From assembly GCA_038087875.1 (NCBI GenBank), contig CM075990.1, forward strand, positions 4,838,001-4,902,000: 64,000 bases of DNA. The letters run 5' to 3'. The DNA is from Malacoraja senta (lineage: Eukaryota). Numbering within the stretch: position 1 is the first letter of the stretch; each line of letters begins with the position of its first letter. The translations under genes and the position numbers were made by a program. Positions 41,168 to 63,589 of the stretch are shown one piece after another. The notes below the pieces were generated by a model. It ran no database searches. It was not told where the DNA came from and saw nothing but the letters and a program-made list of their open reading frames with translations.

Positions 41168-41268
41168 ATGCACCTTGTGGCCCAGTTTCTGTTTGCAAAG
41201 CCCAGGGCCATTAAGGCCCCAAAGAAGACTTCTTCAGAAGAAGAGGAATATGACCCTTTTTGGAGAAG
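41168..41268 (+). CDS. Threonine-dehydratase-like gene, coding exon 1
   Basis: aaacATG start, MHLVAQFLFAKPRAIKAPKKTSSEEEEYDPFWR, donor AG|GTTGGG, phase 2 matching exon 2; TATAAAA at 41092. Confidence 0.65.
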
Positions 41269-43805
41269 GTTGGGTTAAACTTATTACTTTTTAGAATGTA
41301 TGGAGTTGGTACGTTCACCCTGTGACCGCGTGGGTTTTCCCCGGGTGCTCCGGCTTCCTCCAAAGTAAAATTGTACATTGTCCCTAGTGTGTGGGATAAT
41401 GCTTGTGTACGGGGCGATCGCTGGTCAGCACGGACTCGGTGGGCCGAAGGGCCTGTTTCCATGCTGTATCTCTAAAGTCTAAAGTAAAGACCTATCTTGC
41501 TGGGATATCCACTGTGTGACCTTCAATGGTTCATGGACTATGCTAGATTGAAACTACCTCTCTTCCTCCTCCTTCTCACCATGGTCCTGCTTCATCTCTT
41601 TATTCTTGCCACAATAATTTGAAGGAAACTCCAGAGTTGGAGCCAGAGTAAGAGAACAGATATGAAAATTAAATGAAAGAGATTTAGCACTGGGAGTTAA
41701 ATCAATGTTCCATAAATTATCTTTGGGGTTAGTTACTGAATTAGATGCAAACATTCTCCTTTCTCCTGCCCCACTTTGCTTCCAGTTTCCCCCCCCCCCC
41801 TAATACAATCAGTCTTAAGAGGTGTCCCAACCCGAAACGTCACCTCTCCATGTTCTCCAGAGATGCTGCCTGACCTGCTGAGTTACTCCAGCACTATGTG
41901 TCTTTTTTTGGTGGCTTAACTGGTCGGACGAAGCAACAGGGAATCACGACAAATGAGTTTAGGATTTGGAGCTCAGCATATTTTATAAACCACTGTAGTA
42001 CGGGCTGGTATGTATGACCTGTGTAGGAAGGAATTGCAGAGGCTGGGTTATACCGAAGATAGGCACAAAGTGCTGGAGTAACTCAGCAGGTCAGGCAGCA
42101 TCTCTGGAGAAAAAGGATGGATGACGTTTTGGGTCGAGACCGTGTGAAGGGACCGTCCTTTTTCTCCAGAGATGCTGCGTGACGCGCTGAGTTACTCCAG
42201 CAGTGTCAGAGAGAGCTAGATAGGGCTCTTAAAAATAGCGGAGTCAGGGGATATGGGGGAAGGCAGGAACGGGGTACTGATTGGGGATGATCAGCCATGA
42301 TCACATTGAATGGCGGTGCTTGCTCGAAGGGCCGAATGGCCTATTCCTGCACCTATTGTCTATTGTCTATTGTCTATTGTCATCAGTAGTGGAGCATTAT
42401 AGATAAAATAATCTATCATCTTCTGTATGATCTGTTTGTTTGCAGCAGAACACATGTAATTCCAAGTAGTTTTTCTAATAACATTTTACGAATCTATATT
42501 CTCCCTATTAATAGTTTTGACTAGAGTTTGTTATCCCTTGCAGTCAGTAACAAGATATACACTGTTTTCGACTGTTTGAGAGGCTGCAGTAATGAACAGC
42601 ATTCTTTTGTATTAGTGAACTATGCGTCATTTCCACCCCATGTTTATTTTTCACTATTATACAGGATTTTGCTTAGCTTTCAGTTTTGATGGAAGATTTA
42701 CATCCAAACAGTTACTCTAAACACACTGCTTGGCCCCATATCCCCAATAGATTGCTGTAATCACTGCAAGCATTTGGTGATAGAAGCGATAGAAATTAAA
42801 CGGCACAAAGTGCTGGAGTAACTTAGCAGGTCAGGTAGTTTCTCCAGAGAACACGGATAGGTGATGATTCGGGTCGAGATGCTTCTTCAGACTCACTTTA
42901 AATCTAAGTCTGGTTCCCGATTCCCCTACTCTGTGCAAGCGATCTTGAACCCTTTTGAGTCGGAGATGTTAAGACAAACTCCCTTCACTCCCTTCATTTG
43001 AGAACTCTTAATTGACTATTTCTGAGATCATGTCCTCACTTTCAATTAGCCCATTTGTGTCTGGAAGGGGCCGTGAACTGTTCACCTTCCGACTGAGGAG
43101 GTGGAGCCACTGTCGAGTCAAAGTAGCATTGTCAACCCTTGCCATGAACATCACGGCTGATCAACAGTTCATTTACCTGTTTACCAAAATGGAGTTGGGT
43201 GCTGGCCCAGTAGTGGATAAGAACAGGTGGCACATACATCATTCCCTCAGGCTCAGGGGGTGGTGGATCTCTGGAATTCTCTCGCCTGGAGGTTTGGGGA
43301 GGCTCGATCACTGGAGCGAATTCAAGAGGAGGTAGAATTATTGAAGAAAAAGCACACAAAGTGCTGGAGTAACTCAGCGGGTCAGGCAGCATCTCTGGAG
43401 AACATGGACAGGCAAAGTTTCGGGACAGGAACTTAATACTGACGAAAAGTTCAGACCCAAAACGTCACCTGTCCATGTTCTCCAAAGATGCCACCTGACC
43501 CGCTGAGTTACTCCAGCACTTTATGTCTTAATTTGTAAACCAGCATCTGTAGTTCCTTCTTTTAGAACCAGTGACAAGTGTATGTTGAATTGTTCAATTA
43601 CCTGCCCTACCTTCTGCTGCCTCTAATTGGCTTTGTTTATTTACGGCTCTGTTTAGCCCACATCTACAGACGTCAATTCTTAAAGAGATTAATCTGCTTA
43701 ATTTATTTCAACACATTTAAGCTGCCGTGACATGGCTGGCGATTTGTATCAACGCAGTTCTCCAAGTCTATTCGGAGGGGTCTGGAAGAATGAAGGCAGA
43801 TCTAA

Positions 43806-44133
43806 GGGGCCTGTCCCACTTCCACGACTTACAGACACCTACGAGTATGTCTACGAATTCCCACGACTATTTCCATGCCCTCCTTACAAGTAAAAAGTTG
43901 CAATTTCTTTCATCCCGGCCATTTTTTTACTCGTGGACATTTTTTATCCGGCTGGAAAAAAGTCCCGATTTACCTGATGCCACGAGTACCTACGGCTGGC
44001 ATAACGAGCCGCTACGATATATCTACGAACTCCTACGACCTCCTACGGACTCGTTACGAACATTCTGCGAGTTTGAATCAAGGGGAAAACTCGGCAGAAT
44101 TTGTGAATAACTTGGGAAAGTGGGACAGGCCCT
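43806..44133. mobile_element. PIF/Harbinger-type MITE in intron 1
   Basis: TIR GGGCCTGTCCCACTT / AAGTGGGACAGGCCC; TAA/TTA flanks. Confidence 0.8.
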
Positions 44134-46571
44134 TTATTGAACCGTCTACGACCCTAAGGGGACATGACAAGGTGTATGTGGAGATACCTCTACTGATGGG
44201 ACAGTCTTTAACGAGGGTACATGGTTACAAGGGTGGGGGTAGGGCATTCAATTCAAACTGAGGAGCGGTGACATTTTTCCCCTCAGGATCTCTGGAATTC
44301 TTCATCCTGGAGGTTTGGGGATGCCAGATCGTTGGTGCTATTTCAACAGGAGGTCGAATTATTGAAAAACAGCGCTTAAGTAACTCAGCGAGTCAGGCAG
44401 CATTTCTGGAGAACATGGATAGGCAAAGGTTCAGGTCAGGACCTTAATACTGAAGAAGGGTCCCGACATGAAACATCACCTGTCATGTTCCTCAGAGATG
44501 CTGCCTGACCCACTGAGTTACTCCAGCGCTTTATGTCTTTCTTTGTTAACCAGCATCGGCAGTTCCTTGTGTCCAGAGTGGCTGCATCATTGGGAATGTG
44601 AGGGGTATGTGGAGTTGTCACTAAACAGGAGATTAGGTCTGGGCCAGATCACCCTCGATCATACTGAATGGCGAGGAAGTCCTGAGCAGCACATGAACCA
44701 CTTTGCCAAGTTCTTCCCCCAATGGCTATCTTGAGGTCCCAGTTGCCAGTCATTTTAACTCCTCTCCACATTCCCACACTGAACTTAGTTTTAGAGATAC
44801 AGCAATGGCAACAGGCCCTTCTGCCCTCCAAGTCCATGTCAACCACTGAACCACTCATTCACATTAGTTCTACATTATCCCACTTTCTCCTCCACTCACT
44901 ACACACTAGAGACGATTTACAGAGGCCAATTAACCCACAACCCCGTACGTCTTTGGCATGTGTGAGAAAATTGGAGCACCCAGAGAAAACCCACACAGTC
45001 ACAAAGAGAACGTACAAACTCAATGGTCAATGGTTTCGTGTACCAGGGTAGAGTGAAATTATTTTTCTGCATACAGTTCAGCAAAGTATTACTACACATG
45101 AGCACAATCGGAGATGAAGTACAAAGTGTATAGAGATAGTCCACTAAGACCATGTACAACAGTCACCAGGTTTTGGTGCCATTTTCAAGATCCAAGTTTC
45201 TTTAAGTGCAGCTGGCCACAAAGGCCTGTTATCCTGACGGCGTTGCAGGGTTGGCCTGGCCAAGCGAAGTTGTCCTCTGCTGCTGCTCCACTGCTCTGTG
45301 TCACTGCAGGTTGCGTACGCTCCATGTGCTCGGTCTCTGGGTGTGGTGCCCGATCCAGTTGAGCCCCATCACCTTGGGCTACATCGTCTTGGTCCTTATC
45401 CTCGTACCGTCTAGCGAGCGTTCATCCCTCTCCTTGCCCGGTCACCGTTCAGTCTTTGTACCCCAGGGGTGCCCCCCCCCCCCCCCCCCCGCCGACCTTG
45501 AGGGCGAGGAAGATAAGACCCTGGTTCCTCTTACCACACAGACAGTACCTGAGGTCAGGATCGTACCTGGGACTCTGCCGCTGTGAGGCATTGATTAACC
45601 GGGAGGAGGCATCAGACACACATTAAAGATACTATCTTTGCATCTTAATGCTTAACATTGTTTCCCTTTCCCCTGACTCTCAGTCTGGAGAAAGGTTTGG
45701 ACCTGAAATGTCACCTATTCCTTTTCTCCAGAGATGCTGTCTGACCTGCTGAGTTACTCCAGGGTTTTGTGTCTATCTTCGGTTTAAACCAGCATCTGCA
45801 GTTCCTTCCTGCACATGAAAACTTTAGTAATGGAGTTACTAAATGGAGATAACTGGCCAGGGGCCACAGTTTAAGAATAAGGGGTAAGGCATTTAGAACG
45901 GAGATGAGGAAACCATTTTTCACATAGAGAGGTGTGAGTCTGTGGAATTCTCTGCCGGTTCTCTGGATACTTTCAAGCGAGAGCTTGATAGGGCTCTTAA
46001 AGATAGCAGAGTCGGGGGATATGGGGAGAAGGTAGGAACGGGGTACTGATCGTGGATGAGCAGCCATGATCACATTGAATGGCGGTGTAGGCTCGAAGGG
46101 CCGAATGGCCTACTCCTGCACCTATTCTCTATTGTCTATTGTCTATTGTCAATTGGAGTCTAAATTATGGAAACAGGCCCTTCTTCCCACTGACTCCATG
46201 TTAACCACCAAGTGCCCATGTACACAAATCCTGCACTGATCCCATTTATTCTCCCAATATTCCCAGGAATATATGTCCAGATTCCACCACTTAGCTATGC
46301 ACTAGGGGCACTTTACTGTGAGCAATGTATTTACCAACCTGCATGGGAGGAAACTGGATACCTGGAGGAAGCCCTTGAGGTAACTGAGAGAACGTGCAAA
46401 CTCCACACAGGCAGCACCCGAGGTCAGTATCGAACCCGGGTCGCTGGAGCTGTGAGGCAGTGGGCTTTACCACCGGAGCCGCTATGGCGCCTGAAGAAAG
46501 GACACGTCCAGGGAAGGAGATCATGATGTTTACTCCCATCTTCATCCTGTCTTCCTTTGTATTTTGTACAG

Positions 46572-46911
46572 TGCTGTGGAAGGGGCTGCGCGGAGTCCAC
46601 AACCCGCGAGTGATGATTCCCAGAGGCAGAGGCAGAGGGATGATCCCATCCGGAACAGATCCGTCGGGCAGAGGCCCATAAACCCAGAGAGGCTCAAGGA
46701 CTTCGGGGAGGACGAGTACGTGGGCAAAGATGTGAAGACATGGGAACTGACAGTAACGGGCCACTCCGAAACCCTGCTCAACACTGGCCAGGACGTGACG
46801 GCCTACAAGACCAGCAGGAGCCCTGAACCCTGCACTAGACAAGCTCCCTTCGAGGACATCAGGACTGCGGCCTTTAAAATCCAACACGGGATCCAGAAAA
46901 CTCCATGCACG
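46572..46911 (+). CDS. Threonine-dehydratase-like gene, exon 2
   Basis: Acceptor ttttgtacag, donor ACG|GTATGT; ...PERLKDFGEDEY...FEDIRTAAFKIQHGIQKTPCT. Confidence 0.85.
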
Positions 46912-47781
46912 GTATGTGGCACCTTTTATTCCGGCAGTTCAATTGACATTCATGAGTTCAAGACCCACTCCAGCACGCACGGATTCTTACTGAAGAATGT
47001 CACACTGTCTGATGTGAAGTCTTTCTGTAACACTCTTGAGTGGGTCTGCAGCAAAGGGCAGAAGCTGGCTTTCTCTGGCTCCTGGTAGAGTTGTAAGTAC
47101 CAATAGCCTTCAATTTCCTTCAGTATAGTGCAGGTCCAAGAAAGCCACTGCACAACAAATGTACTCTACACAATCCAAGATGCATGAAGTAGGAAAGAAC
47201 TGCAGATGCTGGTTTAAATCGAAGATAGACACAAAATACTGCAGTAACTCAGTGGGACAGGCAACATCTCTGGAGAGAAGGAATGGGTGACAATAGACAA
47301 TAGACAATAGACAATAGACAATAGGTGCAGGAGCAGGCCATTCAGCCCTTCGAGCATTCAATGTGATCATGGCTGATCACCCCCAATCAGTACCCCGTTC
47401 CTGCCTTCTCCCCATATCCCCTTGACGTTTCTGGTCGAGACCCTTATTCAAATACATGAATCCACTTTTGTCTTGGTTATCAATAGTTCAATGGTTTCTT
47501 TATTATCATGTGTACCAAGATATAGTGAAATATGTTTTTTGCGCACAGCTCAAGCAAGGTCTGAAGAAGGGACTCGACCCGAGACGTCACCCATTCCTTC
47601 TCTCCGGAGATGCTGCCTGTCCCGCTGTGTTACTCCAGCTTTTTGTGTCTATCTTGGGTTTAAACCAGCACCTGCAGTTCCTTCCTACACATTTCGGCAG
47701 CAGGAATACCACCATACATAAACACAATTCGTTCAGAATGTACAAAACCAACCACTGAGTCTTTATTTCCTCCCTCCCCAG

Positions 47782-47898
47782 TATTCCAGGCTCTCCAAAC
47801 AGTACGGGATGGAAATCTACCTGAAGAAAGAATATCTGCATCACACGGGCAGTGTGAAGGAGCGTGGCGTGTGGTACCTGCTCACCTCTTTGTCACAG
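47782..47898 (+). CDS. Threonine-dehydratase-like gene, exon 3 (PLP-lysine motif)
   Basis: cctccccag acceptor, CAG|GTACAG donor; YSRLSKQYGMEIYLKKEYLHHTGSVKERGVWYLLTSLSQ; absent from the ORF track. Confidence 0.92.
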
Positions 47899-48599
47899 GT
47901 ACAGTCACATTTGCCAGCTAATTCTTCACCATCCCTAACAAAACAACAGCAATCAAAATGCGGATCTCTCTAAGAGGATCAGAAAATACAGGGAATAAGT
48001 ACAGCATCATCGGTTCCATTCGGATTCTGACAACTATAATGTCCAGGTTCAGGAGCAGCTTCTTCAATAAGGCAAAGAAAGCAGTAAATGGAACTGGTAC
48101 AATGGGCTGGATGAACATGGTGGGCTGAAGGGCCTGTTTCTATGCTTTTTGGCTCCATGCCTCCGTCATAGAAATGTCATTCTCCTGTTTAAAGAAGGCA
48201 TAGGAGGCACCTGATTAGATTGTTAATTGGTGAAAATGGAGGGATGAGCTTGAGTGAATGATTGATTGAAAGATATAGCATGGCAACAGGCCCTTCACCC
48301 CACTGAGTCGCGCCCATCATCGATCTCCGGTTCACACTAGTTCTATGTTACTCCACTTTCGCCTCTACTTCCTACACAATCGGGGCCATGTGTAGAGCTC
48401 AATTAACATACAAACCCGCACGTCTTTGGGATGCGGGAGGAAACTGGAGCACCCGGAAGAAACCCACGTAGTCACAGGGAGAATGTGCAAACTCCACACT
48501 GACAGCACCCGAAGTCAGGATCGAACTCAGGTCACCAGCTGCACCACTGTGCCACCCAAGGTTTAGACTGCTTCGTTAGAGGGGAAATGGGATAAATTG

Positions 48600-49497
48600 G
48601 ACAATTCTTTCAATGAATTAGTACAGGCATGAGGGAATACAGGAACTTGACCAGTGCCTTCTGTGCCTGGAGTATAGAGAACTGTCTCATCCTGAACACA
48701 ACTAAGACTAAAGAGATGGTGGTTAACTTTGGCAGGTCCAAGCTCCCCCTCCCCCGCCAGTCAACGCTGCAGGGGCTGACATTGAGGTGGTGCAGACACA
48801 TAAATACCTTGGAGTGCACCTGGATAACAAACTGGACTGGTCTGTCAATTCTGACGCCCTCTACAAAAAAGGCCAGAGCAGACTCCTTTTCCACAGAAGG
48901 CTCACATCCTCCAATGTGCGTAATGATATGCTGCACACGTTTTACAACACTGTGGTCGCAAGTGTTATTCTCTACGCTGTTGTCTGCTGGGGCAACAGCA
49001 TTAGTGCAAAAAACAGCAAGAAGCTGGACAAACTGGTTAAACGGGCTAGCTCAGTGCTGGAGGGGAGAGTGGACTCTGGGATGGATGTGCTTGAGAGGCA
49101 TATGAGGCGCAAGGTGCAGGTCATCCTGAAAAACCCCGGGCATCCCCTCCATGTAATTCTGGGGAGTCAAAAGAGCACTCGGAACAACAACCGGCTCCTC
49201 TCCCTGCCCTGTAGAACGGAGCGGTTCAGGAGATCCTTCACCCCTGCAGCCATTAGATTTTATAATTCGGACCGCTAGGCTGCAGGGGGATGCATTTTTG
49301 CATAATTCTTTTATTTTTTATTGTTAATTATTGGTCTTTTTAAGTATTTATTGCTCTCAGGTATTGTCCACATTGTATTTAATGTGTTTTCTGTCTGCGT
49401 TCGTTTTGAATGTGTGGTTTGTTGGTTGGGGGCTTCTGGACATCTGAATTTCCCTGAGGGGATCAATAAAGTATTTATTATTATTATTATTATTATA
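48600..49497 (+). mobile_element. Rex1/Babar-like LINE 3' fragment
   Basis: LILNTTKTKEMVVNF, HKYLGVHLDNKLDW, RTERFRRSF; (att)n tail. Confidence 0.85.
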
Positions 49498-49684
49498 ACT
49501 TTGATCAGTAAGGGTGTCAGGGGTTATGGGGAGAAGGCAGGAGAATGGGGTTGAGAGGGAAAGATAGATCAGCCATGATAGAATGGTGGAGTAGACTTGA
49601 TGGGCCGAATGGGGTAATTCTGCTCCCACGACATGAACTTTCCGAGCTGTCTGGTTTCATGATCTGTCCCCGTTTGATTTGCAG

Positions 49685-49926
49685 GAACAGCAGAGGAAGG
49701 GTGTGATCCTGGCATCGGACAACGACTTCTCCAAGGCGGTGGCTCACCACGCCACGGTGCTCCACATACCCGTCTTTATCATCCTGTCGGCCAACACCCC
49801 GCCGGGCAGAGTTAAAACCTGCCGCGAGTACGGAGCCATGGTGATCACCTATGGCAGCGGTGCCGAGGAATCCCGGAGCCACGCGCAGAAACTGGCCACT
49901 GAGAATGGCTACCTCTACCTGCAGGA
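49685..49926 (+). CDS. Threonine-dehydratase-like gene, exon 4
   Basis: tttgcag acceptor, GA|GTGAGT donor; EQQRKGVILASDNDFSKAVAHHA...CREYGAMVITYG...ENGYLYLQ. Confidence 0.92.
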
Positions 49927-51222
49927 GTGAGTTACAAACCAGCTGCTTCGTCACAGCCTCGAGCGAACCACAGCGACCAGGCGCAGATTCAACAAGGGAA
50001 CATCATCACTTATAGAGTCATAGAGACATGGAGTCATACTGCATGGAAACAGGCCCTTCGGCCCAACCTGCCCACACCGACCAACATGTCCCATCTGCTC
50101 TAGTCTCACCTGCCCATATCCCCCTAAACCTGTCCTATCCATGTACCTGTCCAAATGTTTCTTAAACATTGCGATACTACCTGCCTCAACTACCTAGCAA
50201 ACTTATCAGCCTCTGATACTCCAGGGGAAACAATCTATATATTTCCAACCTCTCCTGAGAGCTAATGCTCTTTAACCCAGGCAGCATTCTGGCAAGGAAT
50301 CAAAGTGCTGGAGTAACTCAGCAGATCAGGCAGCATCTCTGGAGAACACAGATGGGTGATTTTTCAGATTGGGGCCCTTCTTCAGACCTGCTGAGTTACT
50401 CCCGTATTTTGTGCCCTTTTTGTGTAAACCAGCATCTGCAGTTCCTTTTATTCAGCATTCTAGAAAACCTCCTTTGCATCCTCTCCAAAACCTCCACATC
50501 CTTCCTGCATTGGGGTGACCTGAACTGCACAGAATACTTCAAATGTGGACTGACCAAAGATTTACAAATATGCAACATGACTTCCTGACTCTCATACTCA
50601 ATGCCCCCAAAGGATCATTCATGATAGAACTGTGTACAGAATAGTCAGAAATTTCATGACATCCTTCTGGAGTTTGGAAGGATGAGAGGGGGGACCTCAT
50701 TGAAACTAACCGAATAGTGAAAGGCCTGGATCGGGTGGATGTGGAGAAGATGTTTCCACTAGTGGGAGAGTCTAGGACCAGAGGTCATAGCCTCAGAATT
50801 AAAGGGCATTCCTTGAGGAAGGAGATGAGGAGGAACTTTAGTCAGAGGGTGGTGAATCGGTGGAATTCATATGGATATTCATATGGATATTTTTAAGGCA
50901 GAGATAGATAGATTCTTGATTAGTATGGGTGTCAGGGGTTATGGGGAGAAGGCAGGAGAATGGGATTAAGAGGGAAAGATAGATCAGCCATGATTGAATG
51001 ACGGCGTAGCCTTGATGGGCTGAATGGCCTCACTCTGCTCCTATCACATGAATTTATGAAGAACAGATGCGAGGACTTTACCGTCTCACCTTAAACTTGT
51101 GCCTTTGTGTTTTTATACTGATCACGATGTCTGTGAATTCCCACAGTTCTCCAGGAAAGACTCGGAGCATTAGCCACGTGTCCTACCCGGAGTACTTGAC
51201 TATATTGTTGTCCCTCTGACAG

Positions 51223-51388
51223 GGAGGACAGCACACCATACCTGGCAGGACTGGGCACCATGGGGCTCGAGGTGTACGAGCAGGTGAATAAGCTGGATGC
51301 CGTGATTCTGCCGGCAGGCGGGCAGCGCCACATCCTGGCAGGAGCCGCTGCACCCATCAAACACCTAAACCCCGGCATCACCGTTATT
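51223..51388 (+). CDS. Threonine-dehydratase-like gene, exon 5
   Basis: ctctgacag acceptor, ATT|GTGAGT donor; EDSTPYLAGLGTMGLEVYEQVNKLDAVILPAGGQRHILAGAAAPIKHLNPGITVI. Confidence 0.92.
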
Positions 51389-51609
51389 GTGAGTACACGC
51401 AGACTGGCACCACCGTGTTAAAGAGTGGTGTTGGCAGCAAGCCAACACAGTCGCGTTTTTGTGCGCGTCTCCATGGTTTGTGGGAGATGTTGCTGAACTT
51501 TGAGCTAGCCAATGCAAAGTGTTTCAGGTGGTGGAATTGGAGCTGCTTCCCTACAGCCATTAGGCTATTAAACACTACAGCCTCAATTAAGCTCTGAACT
51601 ACATAGACT

Positions 51610-52274
51610 ATAGTAAGACTAAACGAGAACTTACCAGTTTGATGTTTGATCTTTATTTTATGAGGAGTTACGTTGGTGATTACGTGCAGAAGACCTGTCA
51701 GGGCACATGCGCATCAATCTTCAAAGCAGCGGTGTGAAATCACAAACAACAAGAACGAAGTAATATAGTAACATAGGAAAAACGAGTAAATTTAGAACTT
51801 CCATCTGACCTTTATGAAAGAGGGTTGGGCGTGGTGGGCACGTAATCACCAACGTAACTCCTCATAAAATAAAGATCAAACTTCAAACTGGTAAATTCTC
51901 GTTTAATCTTACTATTTTACTTCGGAGTCACGTGAGTGACTACGTGAAGATTTTAAAGCTTTGTGATTTCATGCCACAGATACAAATCCTGGCTTCTCAC
52001 TGCATTGATTGACTCGGAACGAGAAATAATCAACAATGCATTAATAATGACATTTGCATGACTGTGCCTGTGGAAAAAATCCCCACAGACCCACAGCAAA
52101 CATACCCAGAAACTTCTGAATTTTTTTTCTTACCTTGTAGTTCAAAACTACATTTCCACTAGAGGAGCACTGCTCCTCACGTTTGTTCGCGCCAATGCGT
52201 CTGACGTAATGACGCGCAGGCGCCCTGACGGGTCTTCTTCACGTAGTCACTCATGTGACTCCGAAGTAAAATAG
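51610..52274 (-). mobile_element. Non-autonomous DIRS1-type element (ITRs + internal complementary region)
   Basis: 51838-51950 is complementary to both outer ends joined together; inner parts of the ends are inverted repeats; ATAG at both boundaries. Confidence 0.85.
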
Positions 52275-52297
52275 TTATTATTGCACTATTATTGTTT

Positions 52298-52643
52298 TGT
52301 GTGCATGTGCGTGCGTGCGTGCGTGTGTATGTATGTGTGTGGTTTGTGTGTGTATGTATGTGTGTGGTGTGCATGTGCGTGCGTGCGTGTGGTGTGTGTG
52401 TCGTGTGTGTGTGTGTGTATGTATGTGTGTGGTTTGTGTGTGTATGTATGTGTTCATGTGTGTGCGTGCGTGGTGTGTGTGTTGTGTGTGTGTGTGTGTG
52501 TGTATGTATATGTGTGTGGTTTGTGTGTGTATGTATGTGTGTGGTGTGCATGTGCGTGCGTGCGTGTGGTGTGTGTGTATGTATGTGTGTGGTTTGTGTG
52601 TGTATGTATGTGTTCATGTGTGTGCGTGCGTGTGGTGTGTGTG

Positions 52644-52676
<33 letters not shown>

Positions 52677-52820
52677 TGGTTTGTGTGTGTATGTATGTGT
52701 GTGGTGTGCATGTGCGTGCGTGCGTGTGGTGTGTGTGTATGTATGTGTGTGGTTTGTGTGTGTATGTATGTGTGTGGTTTGTGTGTGTATGTATGTGTGT
52801 GGTGTGCATGTGCGTGTGTA
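52298..52820. repeat. Compound (TG)-rich microsatellite with higher-order repeats
   Basis: Recurrent block gtatgtatgtgtgtggtttgtgtgt / gtgcatgtgcgtgcgtgcg. Confidence 0.95.
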
Positions 52821-53790
52821 TTTTCTTACACATTTATTACATTGTTTACAGAGTACTATGTTAACATATCCTGTTGTGCTGCTCCAAGCAAGATTTCCAT
52901 TGTTCTATCTGGGACACATGACAACAAACCACTCTTGACTCTTGACTCTTGAACTAAATGGATGAATTTACATTCGCCAATGGTGTCCATTTCTCATTAA
53001 ATATCGGGTTTGGTTTGTGGAGATCTTTGAAGCGTTCTTTTCAGATGGTCGCTGATGGCTCGCTGTTCCTGGATGAACATTCCTCCGCTCTTGGTGGTGA
53101 CACAAGGAACTGCAGATTCTGATTTACAGAAAAGGACAAGAAACTGCTGGAGTAACTCAACGGGTCAGGCAGCATCCCTGGAGAACATGGATAGGTGATG
53201 TTTCGGGTCTGAAGAAGGGTCTCCACTCGAAACGTCACTTATCCGTGTTCTCCAGAGGAGCTGCCTGACCCATTGAGTTACTCCAGTAGTTTGTAATCTC
53301 ATGTAAAGTCAGCAGTGTTTATTGTTTGGGAATCCTTTCTCCAGGTACCTGCGCATTGGTCAGATCTTTTCCAGTACACTGTGCTTTCACCATCTTAATT
53401 ACAGCGCCAACCTTCCTGTTCATCGTTGTGTGTGTCTGTAACACATTCGCTTTGCACCGTGTGAATTTCCCCCCGCTTGCCCTGTCCCCCGCCTGCATAA
53501 CGGGTTGGTGAAAGAAGCTACTCTCCATGGCGGCTTCAGTCTGGCAATCAGAATGAAGCCGTGACTAGTTCCGAGAATGCGGGAACTACTCACGACCATG
53601 AAGGCGACTCCCCAGCAACCACCCGCGAACATGTGGCGACCATGTGGCGACCAAATAGTCTCCTGTAATCGCCTAAAAAGTCACCTAAGTGGGACAGGCC
53701 CATTACTTCAGCATTTTGTGTCTATCTTCGGTATAATCCAACATCTGCAGTTCCTTCCTACATGACTGGTTCTGTCTTTTTTACCTACAG

Positions 53791-53887
53791 GGTGTGGTAC
53801 CTGAGAATTGCCCAACACTACAACAATCCCTCGGGATGGTCCCCACTCTGAAGGAGTCAGTTTACACCAGCCACAGATTCTATGGAG
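53791..53887 (+). CDS. Threonine-dehydratase-like gene, exon 6
   Basis: ttttttacctacag acceptor, G|GTAAGC donor; GVVPENCPTLQQSLGMVPTLKESVYTSHRFYG. Confidence 0.85.
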
Positions 53888-54456
53888 GTAAGCAATATCC
53901 GATTTCGACACATCCTCTCCACATCCACTCTGTCCAGGTCTTTAACTATTCGGTAAGTTTCAATGAGGTCCCCCTCATCCTTCTAAACTGCAAATTTATT
54001 TCTTTAATGATCTATCCAGTCTAATCTTCAAACAGTTCCTGTTCCAATCCCTAATCCCTAATCCCTGGAGTTAATTCCATTGAGGTATCTCGCTGTATAA
54101 ATAATCCCTTTGCCTCCTGACAGATCGCAGAAGGAGAATTCTGCTCAATCAGCCTATTGAGATGATGCCGTGAGAACCTTTCTCACTAGGTTTAATCTCT
54201 ATGGGTGGAGCGTTTCCAATCTGCAAACAAAAATGGTTTGAATCAACAGTCCCAAAGCAGACATTCTAATAGACCCAAAGCTAAATATTTCTTCATTTCT
54301 GCTTGGGTGTGGTGCGTTATTGTTCATAGTCGTGACTTATAGTTGATGACAATATCAGCCCTATCGTCACATCTGTAAAGGTCCAGCAGTAAACTCATGT
54401 TATCTGGATTCTAATCCCCTATCTGTGCTACTAATTGGAATAGTCAGCATTTGAAA

Positions 54457-54965
54457 ATAGACAATAGACAATAGGTGCAGGAGTAGGCCATTCGGCCCTT
54501 CAAGCCAGCACAGCTATTCAATGTGATCATGATTGATCATCCCCAATCAGTACCCCGTTCCTGCCTTCTCCCCATATCCTCTGACTCCGCTATCTTTAAG
54601 AGCCCTATCTAGCTCTCTCTTGAAAGTATCCAGAGAACCGAGAGTTGTGAGTCTGAGGCAGAGAATTCCACAGACTCACAACTCTCTGTGAGGAAAAGGT
54701 GTTTTCTCGTCTCCTTTCTAAATGGCTTACCCCTTATTCTTAAACTGTGGCCCCTGGTTCTGGACTCCCCCAACATCGGGAACATGTTTCTTGCCTCTAG
54801 CGTGTCCAAACCCTTAACAATCTTATATGCTTCAATAAGATTCCCTCTCATCCTTCTAAACTCCAGAGAGTACAAGCCCAGCCGCTCCATTCTCTCAGCA
54901 TCCCGGGAATTAACCTTGTAAACCTACGCTGCACTCCCTCAATAGCAAGAATATCCTTCCTCAAA
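54457..54965 (-). mobile_element. CR1 LINE 3' fragment
   Basis: MERLGLYSLEFRRMRGNLIE...; (acaatag)n tail. Confidence 0.88.
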
Positions 54966-56623
54966 TGTGAAGACAGTTTGCTCCAACTAAATAGGTTATG
55001 GTGGTTTAGAGGTCAAATCTTGCCAAGGTGGAACTTCAAGATACCGCAGATGCTGGAATCTGAACAAAATGCACACTGCTGGAGAAACCCAGAGCTTCAG
55101 GCAGCATCTGTGGAGGGACGTTTTAGACAGATGACATTTTAGCTTGAGAGACAGATTTTGTCTTGGTTCAAATTCCTGTTCATTTGCCTGCCAGTTTCCC
55201 TCCACAGATGCCGCCTGGCCTGCTGAGTTTCTTCTGGAGATTGTTTTTTTTGCTGAAAGTAGACTTTGTCGGATGTCAGGATGGGTTTCTTCCCTCAGTG
55301 GACCCAAGGATGTTGATGCTGCGTTATTTAAATTCTATGTATTTATTTAAACCTATTTATTTAAATAGGCGATGATGATTTGATCTGATTCTGTCCACTA
55401 CCTTATGACATTAATCAGGGACCGATGGTGCCTCAGAACTTGTTTGGTCCCCTACAGGAGTTGAAGAGCAATATTATAGGCTGTTCCTCTCTAATGAAGA
55501 TCTACTTAGTTCCCTCTCCCAAGTGATTAAGTGTGTGAGATACAGTAAGGCAGTTTTTACACTGATTTAAACTTTAGACTTTACTTTAGAGATACAGCAT
55601 GGAAACAGGCCCTTCGCCCCACCGAGTGAGCACCGACCAGTGATCACCACGTACATTAACACTATCCCACACACTAGGGACAATTAACCTACAAACCTGC
55701 ACGTCTTTGGAATGTGGGAGGAAACCGGAGCACCCAGAGAAAACCCACGCAGTCACAGAGAGAACGTACTAACTCCGTACGGACAGCACCGGTAGTCAGG
55801 ATCGAACCCGGGACTCTAGTGCTGTAAGGCAGTAACTCTACCGCTGAGCCACTATGCTACCCTAAACAGAATCGAAAATTAAATAGATGCCCCCTGTAAA
55901 ACCTAGGTTATGAAATTCTCATTCTTGATTTTAAATCATTCCACAGGTTTCATAACCATTACAAGCTTTATAATCACACAAGGTTTTGTGTTCCCTCAGT
56001 TCTGGTCTCCTGTGTAGCTCCTGTCACAATCAGCCCACTGTCGGTGGTTTTGCTGAGGTTACATACTCTGCCCATATTCTCCAGAGATGCTGTCTGAGTT
56101 CCACCAGCACTTTGTGTCGTTTTGTTTTGTAAACCAGCGTCTGCAGTTCCTTGTGTCTATTCTCCGGTAATCCCAAGTGTTGATTTTTTGCCTCTGTCTC
56201 CTTGCTTCTTTTAGGTCACTCCTTAAAAACCTAGAACCTAGTTCTGTCCTGGCAACTCCTCCCCCTTACCTTACCTTACAATGCCATGTACGACAGTGAT
56301 CGCAACTGCTACTGAAGTGTGGATGGCCGTTGGCTCGCTAGGAGCTCATCCGCCCTTTGACAGGTCCTGGGGTCCACAGCCCCCTCCTCACCTGGCAAAC
56401 CAGGCGGGGGAGACGGTTTAGTCGCCGACTATCCGACCATGGAGCAGGTAGCATGGGATTACATGGTGCCCGTGGCGGGGGGAACTCCCCCCGACCTGAC
56501 ATGCAATCTTGCAATGCTATATAAATGCAAACTTTTGTTATTGTTGTCTTCACCAGTGACCAAGATTATTAGTGTTACTTGCTCAGAGTGCATCAAGAGT
56601 AAATCTGTCTCTTTATGTCACAG

Positions 56624-56699
56624 AATTGTTCAACTCTTCTTTTGGCAGCAACACTTGTCAGATGAGTGAGGAACTAATAGATAAAGTTGTTACAGTTAA
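56624..56699 (+). CDS. Threonine-dehydratase-like gene, exon 7
   Basis: tgtcacag acceptor, AA|GTAAGT donor; phase 1 to phase 2 bridges exons 6 and 8; LFNSSFGSNTCQMSEELIDKVVTV. Confidence 0.85.
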
Positions 56700-56744
56700 G
56701 TAAGTATCACTTCTATATGGGACTATTCTTTGTAATTATTCATC

Positions 56745-57710
56745 AAGTCAAGTCACATTTATTTATATAGCACATTTAAAAAACAACTCTCATTGGCCAA
56801 AGTGCTTTATATTTGTTATAAGAATAATATAAACAAACAAACTACATACATATATACATATAGCCCTCGCGCAGAGGACCGCAAGAAAGGCTTGGGAGTA
56901 TAGATACATTTTTAGTCTTGACTTAAAGGAGTCGATAGAGGGGGCAGTTCTGATGGGAAGGGGGATGCTGTTCCACAGTCTAGGAGCTGCAACCGCAAAG
57001 GCGCGGTCGCCCCTGAGATATTCAGCAACCCCAAGTCGGCCGATCTGAGGGACCTGGAGGTGGAGTGGTGGGTGAGAAGACTTTTAATGTAGGTGGGGGA
57101 AAGCCCATTGAGGGCTTTGTAGACATAGAGGAGGATCTTGAAATGTATACGGCACCACACAGGGAGCCAGTGGAGAGAGGCCAGGATCGGGATGATGTGG
57201 TCCCTTTTTCGGGTGCCCGTCAGGAGTCTCGCTGCGGCGTTTTGGACCAGTTGCAGGCGGGACAGGGAAGATTGGCTAATGCCAGTGTAAAGGGAGTTGC
57301 AGTAATCTAGGCGAGAGGACATAAATGTGTGGATAATCTTTTCGAGGTCATCAAAGTGGAGGAATTGTTTTATTTTAGCTATCGTCCGAAGCTGAAAGAA
57401 GCTAGCTTTTACAACGGCATTGACTTGTTTGTCATATTTCAGTGCTGAGTCAAATATCACGCCAAGGTTTTTGATGTGAGGTTTGAGTAGTGGGGTAAGG
57501 CTTCCAAGGCTGCCTGCTATCATTTTGATTGAGTCCGAGGGGCCGAGAAGGATGACCTCAGACTTACTCTCGTTTAGTTGGAGGAAGTTCTGGGCCATCC
57601 AACACTTTATATCCTTGAGGCAGCGGGTAAGGTTAAGCAGATTTGATTGGTTTTGGGCTTCAGGGGGAGATAGAGTTGTGTATCGTCTGCATAGCAATGG
57701 AAGGAAATGC
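56745..57710 (-). mobile_element. L2 LINE 3' fragment
   Basis: CLKDIKCWMAQNFLQLNESKSE, SRLDYCNSL, LASLHWLPV. Confidence 0.9.
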
Positions 57711-57767
57711 CGGAAGGAAATTCATATGAAGGACAAGACTTTCATATCTTGCCATATCCAATAAATT

Positions 57768-58080
57768 GGCGGTCATGGTGGCGCAGCGGTAGAGTTGCTG
57801 CCTTACAGCGAATGCAGTGCTGGCGACTCAGGTTTGATCCTGACTACAGGTGCTGTCTGTACGGAGTTTGTACGTTCTCCCCGTGATCTGCGTGGGTTTT
57901 CTCCAAGATCTTCGGTTTCCTCCCACGCTCCAAAGGTTTGTATGTTAATTGGCTTGGTAAATATAAAAATTGACCCTAGTGGGTGTAGGATAGTGTTAAT
58001 GTGTAGGGATCGCTGGTCGGCACGGACCCGGTGGGCCGAAGGGCCTGTTTCTGCGCTGTATCTCTAAACTAAACTAAATT
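57768..58080 (+). mobile_element. tRNA-derived SINE (HE1/V-SINE type)
   Basis: A/B boxes, GGAGTTTGTACGTTCTCCCCGTG core, (ctaaa)n tail. Confidence 0.82.
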
Positions 58081-59041
58081 AAATCATCTCTTTATAATAG
58101 CCAAATATGCATCCATGCCATACTGATAACACCCTAAACTAGGTATTCTTGATAACCCTCCCACTTGTGCTGCCATATAAACTCCCACTTCTTCCCCACC
58201 CCCCTCCCCTATGCCCCACCTGGACTTGCATCTATTTCTCACCTCCTCCTCTGCTTCCACCTACATTTCTTCCTCTAGCTTCACAATTCACAACAACTCA
58301 ATCCTTTTATCTCACACCTTCTGTCTTTTCATCTCTGGCCTTTATCCAACCATCTGCCCATCAGATAACCAACCCCCTTACCTATGTCGGCCTATTACCC
58401 ACCATGTTCTATCCTGCCACTCCTCTTTTCCAGCTTTCTTCCCCCCCCCGTACAATCAGTCTGAAGAAGGTGCCCACCCGAAATGTTGTTTATCCATGTT
58501 GACACAGTTGACACAGTGAAAATCTTTGTTTTGCAAGCTATCCAGGCAAATCATACCATGCATGAGTGCATCAAGTAGTTAAAAAGAAATATCAGTTAAA
58601 AAGAGATCTGTTAATCAGAAAAATGAGTGCAAAATATAGTATTACAGCTATAGAGAAAGTGCAGGTAAGAAAAAAATGCAATGTGGTAGATTGGAAGATC
58701 ATCCAGGATCATAAGGAATTCAGTCCTAGCACAGTGAAGAAGATGCTGTTCTTGAATCTGGTGGTAGGTGCTTTCATGTTTTTGTATCATCTGCCCGAAT
58801 GGGAGAGGGGAGAAGAGAGAATTACCTTGGTGTGTGTGTGTGAGGTCCATGATTATGGCTGATTTCTTCAGGTGGTGTGTAGATGGAGATGGAGTTACAG
58901 AAGGGAGGGTAGGAGTCAGGACACTTCTTCAGACTGAGGAAAATGAGAGGAAATGGGAGAAAAAGACGAATTGTCTTGATGAAGCCACATGGCGGCTGCT
59001 CTCCTCCTCCACATTGTGAATGTTTGCATGTTCCCCCTCAG

Positions 59042-59167
59042 GGAAGCAGACATCCTGGTCTCCATGCTTCGCCTCATGGAGTACGAGAGGGCCACTGTGG
59101 ACGCGACGGGAGCAATTGGCCTGGCTGCTGTCATTGCCGGGAAACTACCCGAACTCAAAGGGAAGAG
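59042..59167 (+). CDS. Threonine-dehydratase-like gene, exon 8 (gene continues downstream)
   Basis: ttccccctcag acceptor, AG|GTAAGG donor; EADILVSMLRLMEYERATVDATGAIGLAAVIAGKLPELKGK. Confidence 0.92.
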
Positions 59168-59214: not shown

Positions 59215-60000
59215 TGTGACCAGCAACACATTGATGCCATGTGTTACACACGGCCACTGACACATTGATGCTACATGTTACACACAGCCATTGAAATATT
59301 GATGCTATGTGATATTGTACACAGCCACTGACACATTAGTGCTATGTGTTACACATGACCATGTTACACATACATTGATGCTGTATATTACACACGAGCA
59401 TTGAGACATTGTTGCTGTATGATGTTACACACATCCACTGCATGTTACATACTATCACCCTCCTCACCGGTAACCACCTATCACTTACCAGGTGTTGGCT
59501 TGCCCCTCCTCTCTTCCATATTCCAATCTCCCCCCTCCACCACTATCAGTCTAAAAAAGGGTCCCAACCCGAAATGTCACCTATTCAGTCTGAAAAAGGG
59601 CCCCGACCCAAAAAGTTACCTATCTATGTTCTACATGGATGCTGCCTGACTCGCTGAGTTACCCAAGCACTTTGGGCCCTATTTTGTAAACCAGAAACTG
59701 CAGTTCTTTGTATTACCATTGAAACATTAATGCTTTATGTTACACACCACCTTCGAAACGTTGATGTTATATGTAACAAACCACCATTGAAACATTATTG
59801 TTACATATCACACATTGCCACTGAAACATGGTTGCAATATATCACACAGCACTGCTGAAACACTGTTGCAGTCTATCACACTCCACCACTGAAACATTGT
59901 TCCTATATAGCAGACACCACCATTAAAACATTGTTGCTATATAGCAGACACCACCATTAAAACATTGTTGCTATATATTGTACACCACCATTGAAATACC
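59215..60000. repeat. Degenerate ~34-bp minisatellite interrupted by a Penelope tail (~59455-59710)
   Basis: Unit like cagacaccaccattaaaacattgttgctatatag (59911-59978). Confidence 0.8.
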
Positions 60001-63000
60001 TGAATTATTGGCACAGAACACAACCCAGGTCTTCTTTCCACAACATAACCACTGAATCAGAGTATTATGGAATATTACAAGATGCTAAAGGCTACAATGT
60101 GTCAGCTCTTTGTAAGAGCCATGCTGTTCGTCAAGCTCCCCTGCACTTTCCCTGTAACCCTGCATTTCCTTTCCTCATTAAACAAGTATCCAGTTTCCTT
60201 TTGGAAGAGTGAGCCTCTTCGCTCATAACTCTGCTGCTGGAGATGGCACGTTGCTGAGTCAAATGAAACATAATGTCACAGCCATCATTCTGGCCGGCAG
60301 ATTTGGCATCTGTAATTGTGTTTTTGTAAGTTCTTTCTTAAACGGAACCCATTGATGATTATTTTTCCTCATGTGGCGCTAGCTCTCACGTTTCCCTTCG
60401 ACGGCAGTCTGTGGGTCGCAGGTTGAGTGTGGGCCAGTGTGGAATAAACTTTAGAGATTTTAGAGAGCCCACTGACTCTGCACTGACCAGTGATCACCCT
60501 GTACACACCAGGGGCAATTTACAATTTTTACTGAGGCCAATGAACTTACAAACCTGCACGTCTTTGGAGCGTGCGAGGAAACCGGAGCACCCAGGGGAAA
60601 CCTACGCGTTCACTGGGAGGAAATAAAAACTCCGTACACGCAGCACCTGTAGTCAGGATTGAACCCGGGTCTCTGGCGCTGTAAGGCAGCTACTCTACCG
60701 CTGCGCCACTGGGTCGCCCGTGAAGGAACACCATCAGAATTGAGTTAGAAGGAAGTCAGGCACTGGAGTCAAGTCAGAGTACTGAAGAGATGATAAAATG
60801 TGTGCAATGCAAAATGGTGGGGGCAGGGTGAGGAAGAGGGGAGCTGAGAGAAGATACGAAACAGAGCAGAAATGGGCTATCGATGCAGTATTTGCCAGTG
60901 TGTGGCATTGATAACCCCCGGTAAACTGAAGATAAATGGAGATTGGGGTCACTGTTGTCTGAAATAATATTTAGCACAGAAGAAGAGTATGCTTCTTAGA
61001 AACCAATCGCCTTTGACCTAATCATCCCGACAAGATGGAAAATGAAAATCCCACCAAACCTGGAGACAGATTTCCCAACAGGCAAGGACACACACAGAAA
61101 TGTGCCCAAAAATATCTCAAATCCACAGGGAGACAATGTTTGATTACACAATACTATTTTTTATGTTGGTATATTATTTTTCTTTTGTGTATCATTTACA
61201 TGAGATGATGCCACAGCATTCACCAAGACTATTGTGGTGGTGCCTTCCAAACCTGTATCCAGGATCTCCCATTAATATTCAGAACACGTGCTGAACATAT
61301 TCAGCAATTCAGGCATCTGGAGAGTAAAACAGATGTCAATTTTCAGATCCATGACCTCCCATCAACCTGCACAGGCACTCCCCGACTTACAGAAAAGGCA
61401 ACTTACGTAAATGTGCACATACGTAAGCAATTGTTTAAGTCGACGTGGTCTCAGCCTCAGAGCTCCTCCCATGGCCTCCGGCCTGGAGCTATACGTCTTC
61501 AATCAACGAAACCACAGCAACGTTTGCTTTCTCGGGACATGCCTGTGCCTCCATCTTGTACCTCATGGCTTCCAGCTCCAGTTCCCTACCTCCCAGTTCG
61601 GACCCAAGCCGGACTATCGATACCGCCATACACAGCAATTCTCCTTCCGGGCACTGAGATCTTCTCTAGCTGCGATACGCCGGCACCAGCAGGACCTGTT
61701 TTGACTCTACCGAAACTTCGGGCTTCACTCACCCAGACCTGCAATGGACCCCAACTCTACTTCATCCTCCGGAAGATCCACATCTTCAATCAACGATTGG
61801 AGGAGCAGCACCTCATATTTTGCTTGGGCAGTTTATACCCCAGCGGCATGAATATTGACTCCTCCAATTTCCCGTAGCCCTTATTGTCTCCTGCGCTTCT
61901 CAGCTCTCCCTTAGCCATCTGGCTCCTCCTCTTCCTCCCCCCCCCCCACCCTACATCAGTCTGAAGAAGGGTTTTGGCCCGAAACGTTGCCTATTTCCTT
62001 CGCTCCATAGGTGCTGCCTCACCCGCTGAGTTTCTCCAGCACTTTTGTCTGTTTTCACTTTGGAGCTCCACCCGGGGTCTCCACTTCAGAGCTCCCCCCA
62101 CGGTCTCTGACTTGGAGCTCCCCCCACGATCTCAACCTCTGAGCTCCTCCCACGGTCGTGCCTTGGAGCTCCACGTGGTCTCCGCTTCGAATAGTATATT
62201 TACAGGTGTGCAGTAGCCCTTCAGTTTCCGACTTAGTAAAATCCAACTTAGGCAAGGGTCAGCGGGATGTAACCCTTACGTAAATCAGGGAATGTCTGTA
62301 TTGTTAACTCTGATTTTCACGTCACTGTTTTTCCTTATCTATTTCATTATTTTGCTCTGAGATGCTGCTTTAAACTGAAAACAGACACAAAATACTGGAG
62401 TAACAGTGGAAGAGGCAGCATCTCTGGAGTCTGAAGAAGGGTCTCAACCCAAAATGTCACCCATTCCATCTCTCCAGAGATGCTGCCTGACCCGCTGAGT
62501 TACTCCAGCATTTTATTTAGCTTAGTTTAGTTTAGTGTATTTATTGTCACGTGTACCGAGGTACAGTGAAAAGTACATAATTACTGTGTCATTTTCCTTG
62601 CAGTCTGTATATAGGTCCATCGCGAGATCTCAGCTTCTATACTGCATGCCTTGCGATAAAGTCTAGAGTTTCATGAGGTTTCCTCACATCTTGCCTTAAT
62701 ATTCTGAGAAGCAATAACTCAAATCCCACGGCCTTTCCCCATCACCAGGACTCCTTCCGTCCACGTCGTTATTTTGCCCATCACCTCCGACTCGCTGACA
62801 TGAAGTAATGTTGAGATCACGGGACAACCAGCTGGCAAGCTGCTTCTGGGAGGTTTGGTTTTACGCAGCAGCATGAGTTGGAAGCAGCTGGATTTTTGTT
62901 AGAGAGTGCGCGAGCGTTTTGAAATTCCCTTTCTGTAAGTGGAGATAGGGCTTCATCTCTACACACTACTGTACCCTAGCCTGGTACAGGATTGAGAAAA

Positions 63001-63589
63001 ATACATCGCCTGTGACAGGCTCCACTGCAACAACCAAGAAACCACACCAATGCCTCGACTTCCTTCGAAGGATGAGGAAGTTCGGCATGTCCCAATAGAC
63101 AATAGACAATAGGTGCAGGAGTAGGCCATTCGGCCCTTCGAGCCAGCACCACCATCCAATATGATTATGGCTGATTATCCACAATCAGTACCCCGTTCCT
63201 GCCTTCTCCCCATATCCACTGACTCCACTATCTTTAAGAGCCCTATCTAGCTCTCTCTTGAAAGTTTCCAGATAACCGGCCTCCACTGCCCTCTGAGGCA
63301 AAGATTTCCACAGACTCGCAACTCTCTGTGTGAAAAAGTGTTTCCTCATCTCCGTTCTAAATGGCTTACCCCTTACTCTTAAACTGTGGCCCCTGGTCCC
63401 CTACAACTCCCACCAACTTCTACAGATACACCGTAGAAAGCATTTTATCGGGATGCATCACAGCTTGGTTTGGGAACAGCTCCATCCAAGACTGCAAGGA
63501 TTTGCAGTGAATTGTTGATACAGCCCAGACCATCACACAAACCAACCTCCCTTCTATTGAGGAAAGAACTACATAGGTAGGGAGGGATT

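Follow-up and report, generated by a model that had tools for sequence, protein, structure and literature searches.

Gene structure

The window analysed here, a stretch of 64,000 nucleotides (nt) from the skate Malacoraja senta (GenBank assembly GCA_038087875.1, contig CM075990.1, positions 4,838,001 to 4,902,000 of the forward strand), contains eight exons of a gene related to threonine dehydratases (positions 41168-59167 of the window, plus strand). This is a conserved and apparently uncharacterised vertebrate gene, whose site for pyridoxal 5'-phosphate (PLP) has been rebuilt and which has acquired a newly conserved surface.

The eight exons splice in frame into 421 codons without a stop, all seven introns are of the GT-AG type, and exon 8 also closes at a GT donor (Table 1); exon lengths, boundaries and open frame agree with those given in the initial annotation of the locus. 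Splicing was inferred from homology, and residues are numbered according to the Amblyraja radiata protein P0001 (window residue plus 21), from which the window product differs at 14 of 387 residues. Tblastn searches with public orthologues recover all eight exons, including exon 1, whose product corresponds to the N-terminus of proteins from Rhinoraja, Mobula, Heterodontus, Callorhinchus and the platypus (E-value 1e-15 with Rhinoraja and 0.013 with the platypus). Exons 3, 4 and 5 each match the Pfam domain PALP separately (E-values 3e-9, 8e-15 and 5e-6, respectively).

The gene had initially been regarded as intact. Its frame is indeed open, but the gene is incomplete in the window: for the last 110 residues of P0001 (444-553, comprising the CSGN motif and the ACT domain), tblastn found no match up to position 64000, such that the SGGN-equivalent exon and the ACT domain for which a downstream search had been proposed were not met with in the window. 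These C-terminal exons presumably lie past position 64000.

Concerning the 5' end, two stretches of intron 1 (43030-43193 and 45247-45393) are used as alternative 5' exons in public Amblyraja and Rhinoraja models (88% and 57% identity), the first of them being either a genuine alternative exon or a model artefact. The N-termini of bird and teleost isoforms are varied and sometimes hydrophobic, which could alter localisation. The public model of Leucoraja erinacea (P0139) continues past exon 2 into the intron, where it ends; the gene is thus either split or mis-modelled in that species.

Table 1. Exons and selected sites of the dehydratase-like gene in the Malacoraja senta window
Feature	Position	Length (nt)	Strand	Content
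Exon 1	41168..41268	101	+	ATG at 41168; AQFL and EEYDPFW motifs conserved in N-terminal extension
Putative alternative first exon	43030..43193		+	Used in public Amblyraja model; 88% to P0001 residues 1-59; GT at 43194
Exon 2	46572..46911	340	+	Vertebrate-specific IxPERLKDFxE motif; start of PALP domain; Q163 and K164 of conserved patch
Exon 3	47782..47898	117	+	SVKERG; Y169, R171 and K174 of conserved patch
Val replacing PLP-stacking Phe (exon 3)	47854-47856		+	
Schiff-base Lys (exon 3)	47857-47859		+	
Exon 4	49685..49926	242	+	Small domain; SAGNH of substrate (asparagine) loop replaced by SDNDF; R254, Y256, H273 and N281 of conserved patch
Asp of substrate loop (exon 4)	49718-49720		+	Invariant
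Phe of substrate loop (exon 4)	49727-49729		+	Invariant
Exon 5	51223..51388	166	+	EEDS replaces GYDH; codon of first Glu shared with exon 4
Phosphate loop (exon 5)	51311-51337		+	PAGGQRHIL, one residue longer than canonical PVGGGGL
Exon 6	53791..53887	97	+	FYG replaces LAD
Val for metal-ligand Glu (exon 6)	53797-53799		+	Skates only
Exon 7	56624..56699	76	+	Remainder of remodelled ADGLAVP segment; low confidence in structure model
Exon 8	59042..59167	126	+	YER; VDAT replaces VEGA; ends in phase 2 before CSGN and ACT exons

Distribution and phylogeny

A protein search with P0001 yielded 368 matches. Among the best 120 of these, orthologues with 52-89% identity are found in sharks, rays, a chimaera, sturgeon, bowfin, lungfish, amphibians, reptiles, birds and the platypus, and look-ups of more distant matches add teleosts, the sea lamprey and the opossum. 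The gene family is old, extending from lamprey to opossum, and is not a peculiarity of skates. Placental mammals occur neither among the best 120 of the 368 matches nor among 30 look-ups, and they may have lost the gene; the available main text of a survey of genes lost in eutherians (PMC3296468) contains no matching word, although its supplements might list the gene.

In a tree of 95 sequences (quick IQ-TREE search, with support from the Shimodaira-Hasegawa-like approximate likelihood ratio test only), the 30 vertebrate sequences form a single clade (support 100), which falls within a mainly animal group of threonine dehydratases with an ACT domain (support 96). The vertebrate stem amounts to 0.80 changes per column, and a further 0.39 are situated before the jawed vertebrates. 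Branching inside the clade follows the species tree, and the window product joins Amblyraja and Rhinoraja (support 99), as expected for a skate. An origin of the changes in skates or in fishes alone was rejected on the basis of the protein searches and the tree. With a canonical protein of Nematostella as query, no vertebrate was found among the 71 organism-named matches in the best 120 of 8000 scored; among the matches listed for this query a canonical vertebrate paralogue was thus not seen, which does not prove its absence.

Some public models depart from the common exon set. Three opossum models (P0127, P0273, P0274) skip the small domain and the glycine loop (exons 4-5) in frame, while the remainder aligns well; either a true deletion or a gap in the assembly may account for this. 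The lysine-bearing stretch of exon 3 is absent from a bamboo-shark isoform and from two cyprinid models (P0008, P0174, P0417).

Active-site motifs

The available passages of PMC6333871 and PMC6424897 describe as features of the PLP site in this family an SxKxRG motif with Lys56 and with Phe55 stacking on the ring, a Ser-Ser-Gly-Asn loop that binds the substrate carboxylate, a tetraglycine phosphate loop, an SxGN motif and the metal ligand Glu210. For the comparison of these sites, 67 gnathostome proteins (61 hand-chosen from the search matches, five teleosts and the opossum) were set against 61 invertebrate proteins, named or annotated and likewise chosen from search matches. Motif patterns were counted in 153 vertebrate proteins of more than 380 residues (isoforms included, hence not independent) and in 119 canonical-type controls. 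Each of the five canonical motifs is found in none of the 153 vertebrate proteins, whereas 119, 118, 118, 117 and 119 of the 119 controls possess them. This supports the initial view that the protein is unlikely to be an ordinary dehydratase.

The Schiff-base lysine K194 is retained together with R196 and G197 in all 66 gnathostome rows with residues at these sites, and likewise in the lamprey. At the position of the PLP-stacking Phe, gnathostomes have Val (63 rows) or Thr, Met or Ala (one each), whereas all 61 invertebrates have Phe. The asparagine loop S-(A/S)-G-N-H is replaced by (S/T)-D-(S/N/C)-N-F. Asp219, which takes the position of the re-face Ser84 of serine racemase, is present in 66/66 gnathostome rows, as are Phe222 and Glu288, and Tyr374 is present in 67/67. 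Changed and then re-fixed in gnathostomes are F193V, A219D, H222F, G288E, I294Y, A374Y and G450S, by which larger or acidic residues have been fixed around the pocket, as well as Q298L and E421D. The lamprey has altered loops of its own, without the re-face Asp.

Other sites have changed and remain variable. The tetraglycine loop is one residue longer and differs among species (position 321: G54/A7/P2/T2/S1; position 322: H, Q, E, Y or P), tolerating Glu, Gln, Pro, Tyr and Thr. The same applies to G220, D375 (G46, R18) and G376 (D/E), and to the DRPGG and HER motifs of the ACT domain. The equivalent of Asn86 varies as well (N58, S4, D3, H1; Asp in skates). At the pyridine-nitrogen motif (S/C)-x-G-N, which was read from orthologue proteins since its exons are situated beyond the window, the consensus is CSGN (C449 in 60/67, G in 57/66, N452 in 64/66), with Ser fixed where invertebrates have Gly.

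The three motifs read in the initial annotation, GSVKERG with its lysine kept, ASDNDFS and PAGGQRHIL, are all present, and they are the batoid versions of motifs whose loop consensus in the family is A(S/T)D(S/N/C)NF and PAGGHCGLL. Because skates further replace the equivalents of Asn86 and Glu210 (N221D, E346V) and possess E423T, the window motifs are extreme versions of a family-wide state. The loss of two loops that had been proposed is thus correct in so far as both are altered, but the change is wider and older: as judged from the sequences, five active-site motifs and the ligand loop of the ACT domain were remodelled on the vertebrate stem. Canonical loops in orthologues, with decay in a single lineage, were not encountered: every vertebrate orthologue examined has altered loops.

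In several other, long-branched homologues, from a soft coral, a nematode, a sea anemone and others (P0131, P0136, P0150, P0160, P0161, P0169, P0175, P0216, P0225, P0242), the substrate or glycine loops have also changed independently, and the soft-coral protein has Asp as its re-face residue. Threonine dehydratase thus seems to have given rise to degenerate copies repeatedly.

Site rates

The active-site set consists of 29 columns, chosen from reviews and from the NGYD, ADG and EGA segments. Among the 61 invertebrates, the rate of these columns is 0.12 of the mean versus 0.94 elsewhere (p = 2e-10), whereas the corresponding values for the 67 gnathostomes are 0.75 and 0.99 (p = 0.064). In split halves, the active-site rates are 0.18 and 0.17 for invertebrates and 0.86 (p = 0.12) and 0.71 (p = 0.021) for gnathostomes. 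The rate shift exceeds that of neighbouring columns in 20,000 of 20,000 permutations. Concerning single segments, the gnathostome and invertebrate rates are 1.25 versus 0.30 in the glycine loop, 1.26 versus 0.09 in the ADG segment and 1.74 versus 0.13 in the ACT motif. Site rates correlate at 0.81 and 0.65 within the clades and at 0.20-0.31 between invertebrates and gnathostomes.

Predicted fold and ACT domain

The AlphaFold model of P0001 keeps the fold (predicted template modelling score, pTM, 0.64) and aligns with Escherichia coli IlvA (Z 32.5, root-mean-square deviation, rmsd, 3.8, 401 residues aligned) and with Salmonella TdcB (Z 31.9, rmsd 3.3, 314 aligned). Residues 351-387 have a predicted local distance difference test score (pLDDT) below 50, versus 86-98 in the matching part of an amphioxus control folded from an alignment of the same depth (61 sequences), which fits a remodelling of this part, though alignment content also sways such scores. 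P0001 exceeds the Pfam cut-off for PALP (PF00291) with 199.8 bits versus 35, and stays below the equivalog cut-offs of TIGR01127 (243.7 of 378.75 bits) and PRK07334 (259.9 of 496), as do three other orthologues; both of these models are prokaryote-built.

Residues 472-548 of the model form a beta-alpha-beta-beta-alpha-beta unit that aligns with the C-terminus of the amphioxus protein, i.e., an ACT-type fold following PALP. The Pfam match to ACT is weak (E-value 0.039, in one of four proteins scanned). Since the ligand loop of this domain is one of the fastest-evolving motifs, amino-acid sensing by it was downgraded as an explanation.

Newly conserved surface and N-terminal motif

A total of 78 columns evolve fast in invertebrates; 18 of them have become slow in gnathostomes, including Q163, K164, Y169, R171, K174, Y189, R254, Y256, H273 and N281. 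A set of 15 nucleotide-site residues of the Schizosaccharomyces pombe racemase, listed in the available passages of PMC6333871, was mapped onto the family by sequence alignment. These columns evolve in gnathostomes at 0.54 versus 1.00 elsewhere (p = 0.004; halves p = 0.008 and 0.003) and in invertebrates at 1.54 versus 0.91, with a local permutation p of 0.002. Among the invertebrate-fast columns, five of eight nucleotide-site columns are slow in gnathostomes, versus 13 of 70 others (p = 0.014). The equivalents of Tyr119 and Asn311 of the racemase nucleotide site are retained.

The acidic N-terminal motif I-x-P-E-R-L-K-D-F-x-E (residues 91-101) is invariant at six positions (61/61) and nearly so at three more (60/61), and could dock on the basic patch. 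The N-terminal extension gave no usable match in the Atlas search. Matches to TIM barrels designed by artificial intelligence, which involve a short repeat, were due to chance.

Comparison with known systems

The organization of the protein is that of the animal threonine ammonia-lyase with one ACT domain (amphioxus P0307, Nematostella P0292; TIGR01127/PRK07334 type), among which the vertebrate clade nests: both possess the same PALP and ACT layout, and the profile-profile match covers 404 columns with 41% identity (E-value 1e-117). Despite this similarity, the five active-site motifs and the ACT motifs DRPGG and HER are canonical in the animal enzyme and all changed in the vertebrate clade, which adds an N-terminal extension of about 140 residues with an invariant motif. 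The best matches among solved structures are Salmonella TdcB (2gn0) and E. coli IlvA (9d2q, 1tdj), with a sequence E-value of 2e-38; at 21-29% identity, they retain SFKxRG, SAGNH, GGGG and ADG. TdcB is without regulatory repeats, whereas IlvA possesses two.

Serine racemase (human 3l6b, S. pombe 1v71) has the fold and the lysine motif in common with the vertebrate clade, and its nucleotide-pocket columns are those newly conserved there. The identity is about 26% (110-121 bits, versus 320 bits for an invertebrate dehydratase), and unlike in the racemase, the re-face Ser is changed to Asp, the tetraglycine loop is broken and an ACT domain is present. Diaminopropionate ammonia-lyase (4d9g) is another protein of fold type II (Z 26.9, rmsd 3.9, 313 aligned, 18% identity), with a Z below that of the dehydratases. 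Its Asp120 presumably sits at the Ser84 position. For the E. coli enzyme, Lys77 and Asp120 are the proposed catalytic residues (available passages of PMC4000059).

AZIN1 and Xenopus Jhc1 are functional analogues, i.e., regulators derived from enzymes, with other folds, and not relatives. AZIN1 keeps the PLP lysine but is not known to bind PLP. Jhc1 is described in the abstract of a preprint as a non-mammalian vertebrate pseudoenzyme with new residues in place of catalytic ones; it was checked as a possible identity of the present gene and belongs to a different family. Both analogues coexist with an active paralogue in their genome; for the present gene, by contrast, the listed matches include no canonical paralogue from a vertebrate.

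Functional interpretation

Because the active site was rebuilt while a different surface became conserved, the protein is probably a regulator or ligand-binding protein and not a threonine-degrading enzyme. At the level of sequence, the protein has what characterises a pseudoenzyme, an enzyme fold with its catalytic motifs gone, encoded by a conserved gene. We lean, with moderate confidence, towards a PLP-fold pseudoenzyme whose substrate pocket would be blocked and which would serve as a regulator or sensor by means of its new binding surface; within this explanation, a PLP still held on the lysine and a protein without PLP appear about equally likely. A vertebrate descendant of the animal one-ACT threonine dehydratase would have lost its Ser/Thr dehydratase chemistry on the vertebrate stem, and the lysine would either hold PLP without turnover or pair with the new Asp/Glu. 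The protein would act via the new surface, which corresponds in location to the ATP site at the dimer interface of serine racemases and may bind an anionic ligand (a nucleotide or phosphorylated metabolite), the protein's own acidic N-terminal motif or a partner protein, the outcome being a metabolic regulator. Among the three options of the initial annotation, the non-catalytic regulatory partner is thus favoured and the enzyme with changed specificity stays alive, whereas ligand sensing, as far as it concerns amino acids and the ACT domain, is argued against.

Several observations weigh against a pseudoenzyme of this kind. The invariant KxRG and the mostly kept C449 and N452 are as expected if PLP still binds, and seven active-site positions were re-fixed rather than freed, a pattern that a new specificity would also produce. 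Among the tetrapods, which make up one of the two halves, active-site columns are still slower (0.71 versus 1.01, p = 0.021). Invertebrate-invariant columns outside the active-site set relaxed just as much as those inside (0.78 versus 0.72), so that relaxation is not confined to the pocket, and the residue is unchanged in 84 of 121 such columns outside versus 15 of 27 inside the set (p = 0.18). According to the available passages of PMC6424897, the S84D variant of human serine racemase still eliminates L-serine, and the phosphate loop binds by backbone NH groups, such that changes in its side chains need not abolish binding. Concerning the surface, the test of the nucleotide patch was post hoc, chosen after the conserved columns had been seen. 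Furthermore, the equivalent of the phosphate-binding Lys52 is Tyr or His and that of the Gln89 gate is Met or Lys, the latter being the state of enzymes without ATP regulation (ibid.). The patch is thus well supported as a newly constrained basic and aromatic surface, and nucleotide binding would be only one reading of it among others.

Less probable than the pseudoenzyme, but possible, would be a catalytically active PLP lyase that has taken on a new substrate and in which the invariant re-face Asp would serve as a second base or bind a cationic side chain; the acidic EED stretch would favour a basic or D-configured beta-substituted amino acid. Such a lyase would agree with the invariant Schiff-base Lys, Arg and Gly, with the fixation of Asp219, Phe222, Glu288 and Tyr374, with the use of an Asp beside the Lys by diaminopropionate ammonia-lyase, which has the same fold (PMC4000059, in part), and with the S84D racemase, which loses racemisation, keeps L-serine elimination and shifts away from anionic substrates (PMC6424897, in part). 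It is difficult to reconcile with a phosphate loop and an ADG segment evolving faster than the protein mean (1.25 and 1.26), with Val in place of the PLP-stacking Phe, with the variable Asn86 equivalent (Asp in skates) and with the different loop of the lamprey, which is without the Asp. The public models without the Lys exon (P0008, P0174, P0417) or without exons 4-5 (opossum) point in the same direction, but may be model or assembly faults.

A more specific and still more tentative idea is that two ligand sites swapped roles at the origin of vertebrates: the PLP site would have been shut, and the ATP-type pocket at the dimer interface would have become the working sensor of a nucleotide or phospho-metabolite, gated by the acidic N-terminal motif.

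An ordinary, perhaps slow, L-serine/L-threonine dehydratase, as the database names say, seems improbable. The closest families are indeed threonine ammonia-lyases (TIGR01127, PRK07334), IlvA and TdcB have a matching fold (Z about 32), the order of PALP and ACT is kept, and the S84D racemase retains L-serine elimination (PMC6424897, in part). However, the scores are far under the curated cut-offs (244 of 379 and 260 of 496 bits), all five canonical motifs are absent, and the site rates correlate well within clades (0.65, 0.81) and poorly between them (just 0.20-0.31).

That the skate copy is an incipient pseudogene, with altered loops as a sign of decay, is very improbable: skates depart at 16 listed near-fixed columns (e.g., N221D, E346V and E423T) and the Leucoraja model P0139 stops after exon 2, but the frame is open with canonical splice sites over 18 kb, only 14 changes in 387 residues separate the product from that of Amblyraja, skate departures amount to 9 of 178 columns within a family range of 0-44 (platypus 17, four teleosts 19-44), and the main changes are common to all jawed vertebrates.

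Other features of the window

A crude exon scan revealed no convincing neighbour gene in the rest of the window, and Rfam gave no matches in it. The region 8500-9500 is rich in GC (up to 0.70) and in CpG, with a TGACGTC element near 9384, and probably belongs to another gene as its promoter or first exon. Intron 5 contains two adjacent inverted repeats at 51610-52275 (arms of 78 nt with 96% and of 40 nt with 98% identity), which are likely the remains of a small transposon. A TG microsatellite and minisatellites of 34 and 26 nt are situated in introns (52298-52819, 59226-59355, 59715-59996, 62056-62188). Open frames at 14371-16129, 48727-49275 and 63560-64000 resemble pieces of reverse-transcriptase elements of the long interspersed nuclear element (LINE) type.

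Names, literature and implications

In databases, members of the clade are named L-threonine ammonia-lyase-like, TdcB-like, L-serine deaminase or SRR, and the label SRR/srr is attached to proteins so named in some bird records and in one catfish table. In the searched literature, which leaves out most subscription journals, no study devoted to the vertebrate clade was found. In the available parts of two fish transcriptome studies (PMC11507341, PMC11010891), a gene of this name, which may be an orthologue, is differentially expressed, in one of them as srr. The passages available from PMC8916719, PMC4201762, PMC5171636, PMC5518511 and the Jhc1 preprint have no bearing on the gene, and a mention of Malacosteus in the literature proved to be bacterial.

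The gene is thus annotated as an active threonine/serine deaminase, in places as a serine racemase, despite its rebuilt active site, and pathway maps as well as fish and bird transcriptome studies that rely on those names may misread it. The protein would represent new biochemistry in both cases, be it as a pseudoenzyme of PLP fold that has gained a binding surface or as the enzyme of an orphan PLP reaction of non-placental vertebrates. If, moreover, the two ligand sites did swap roles, the protein would be an unrecognised pseudoenzyme sensor of PLP fold type II, kept by most vertebrates.

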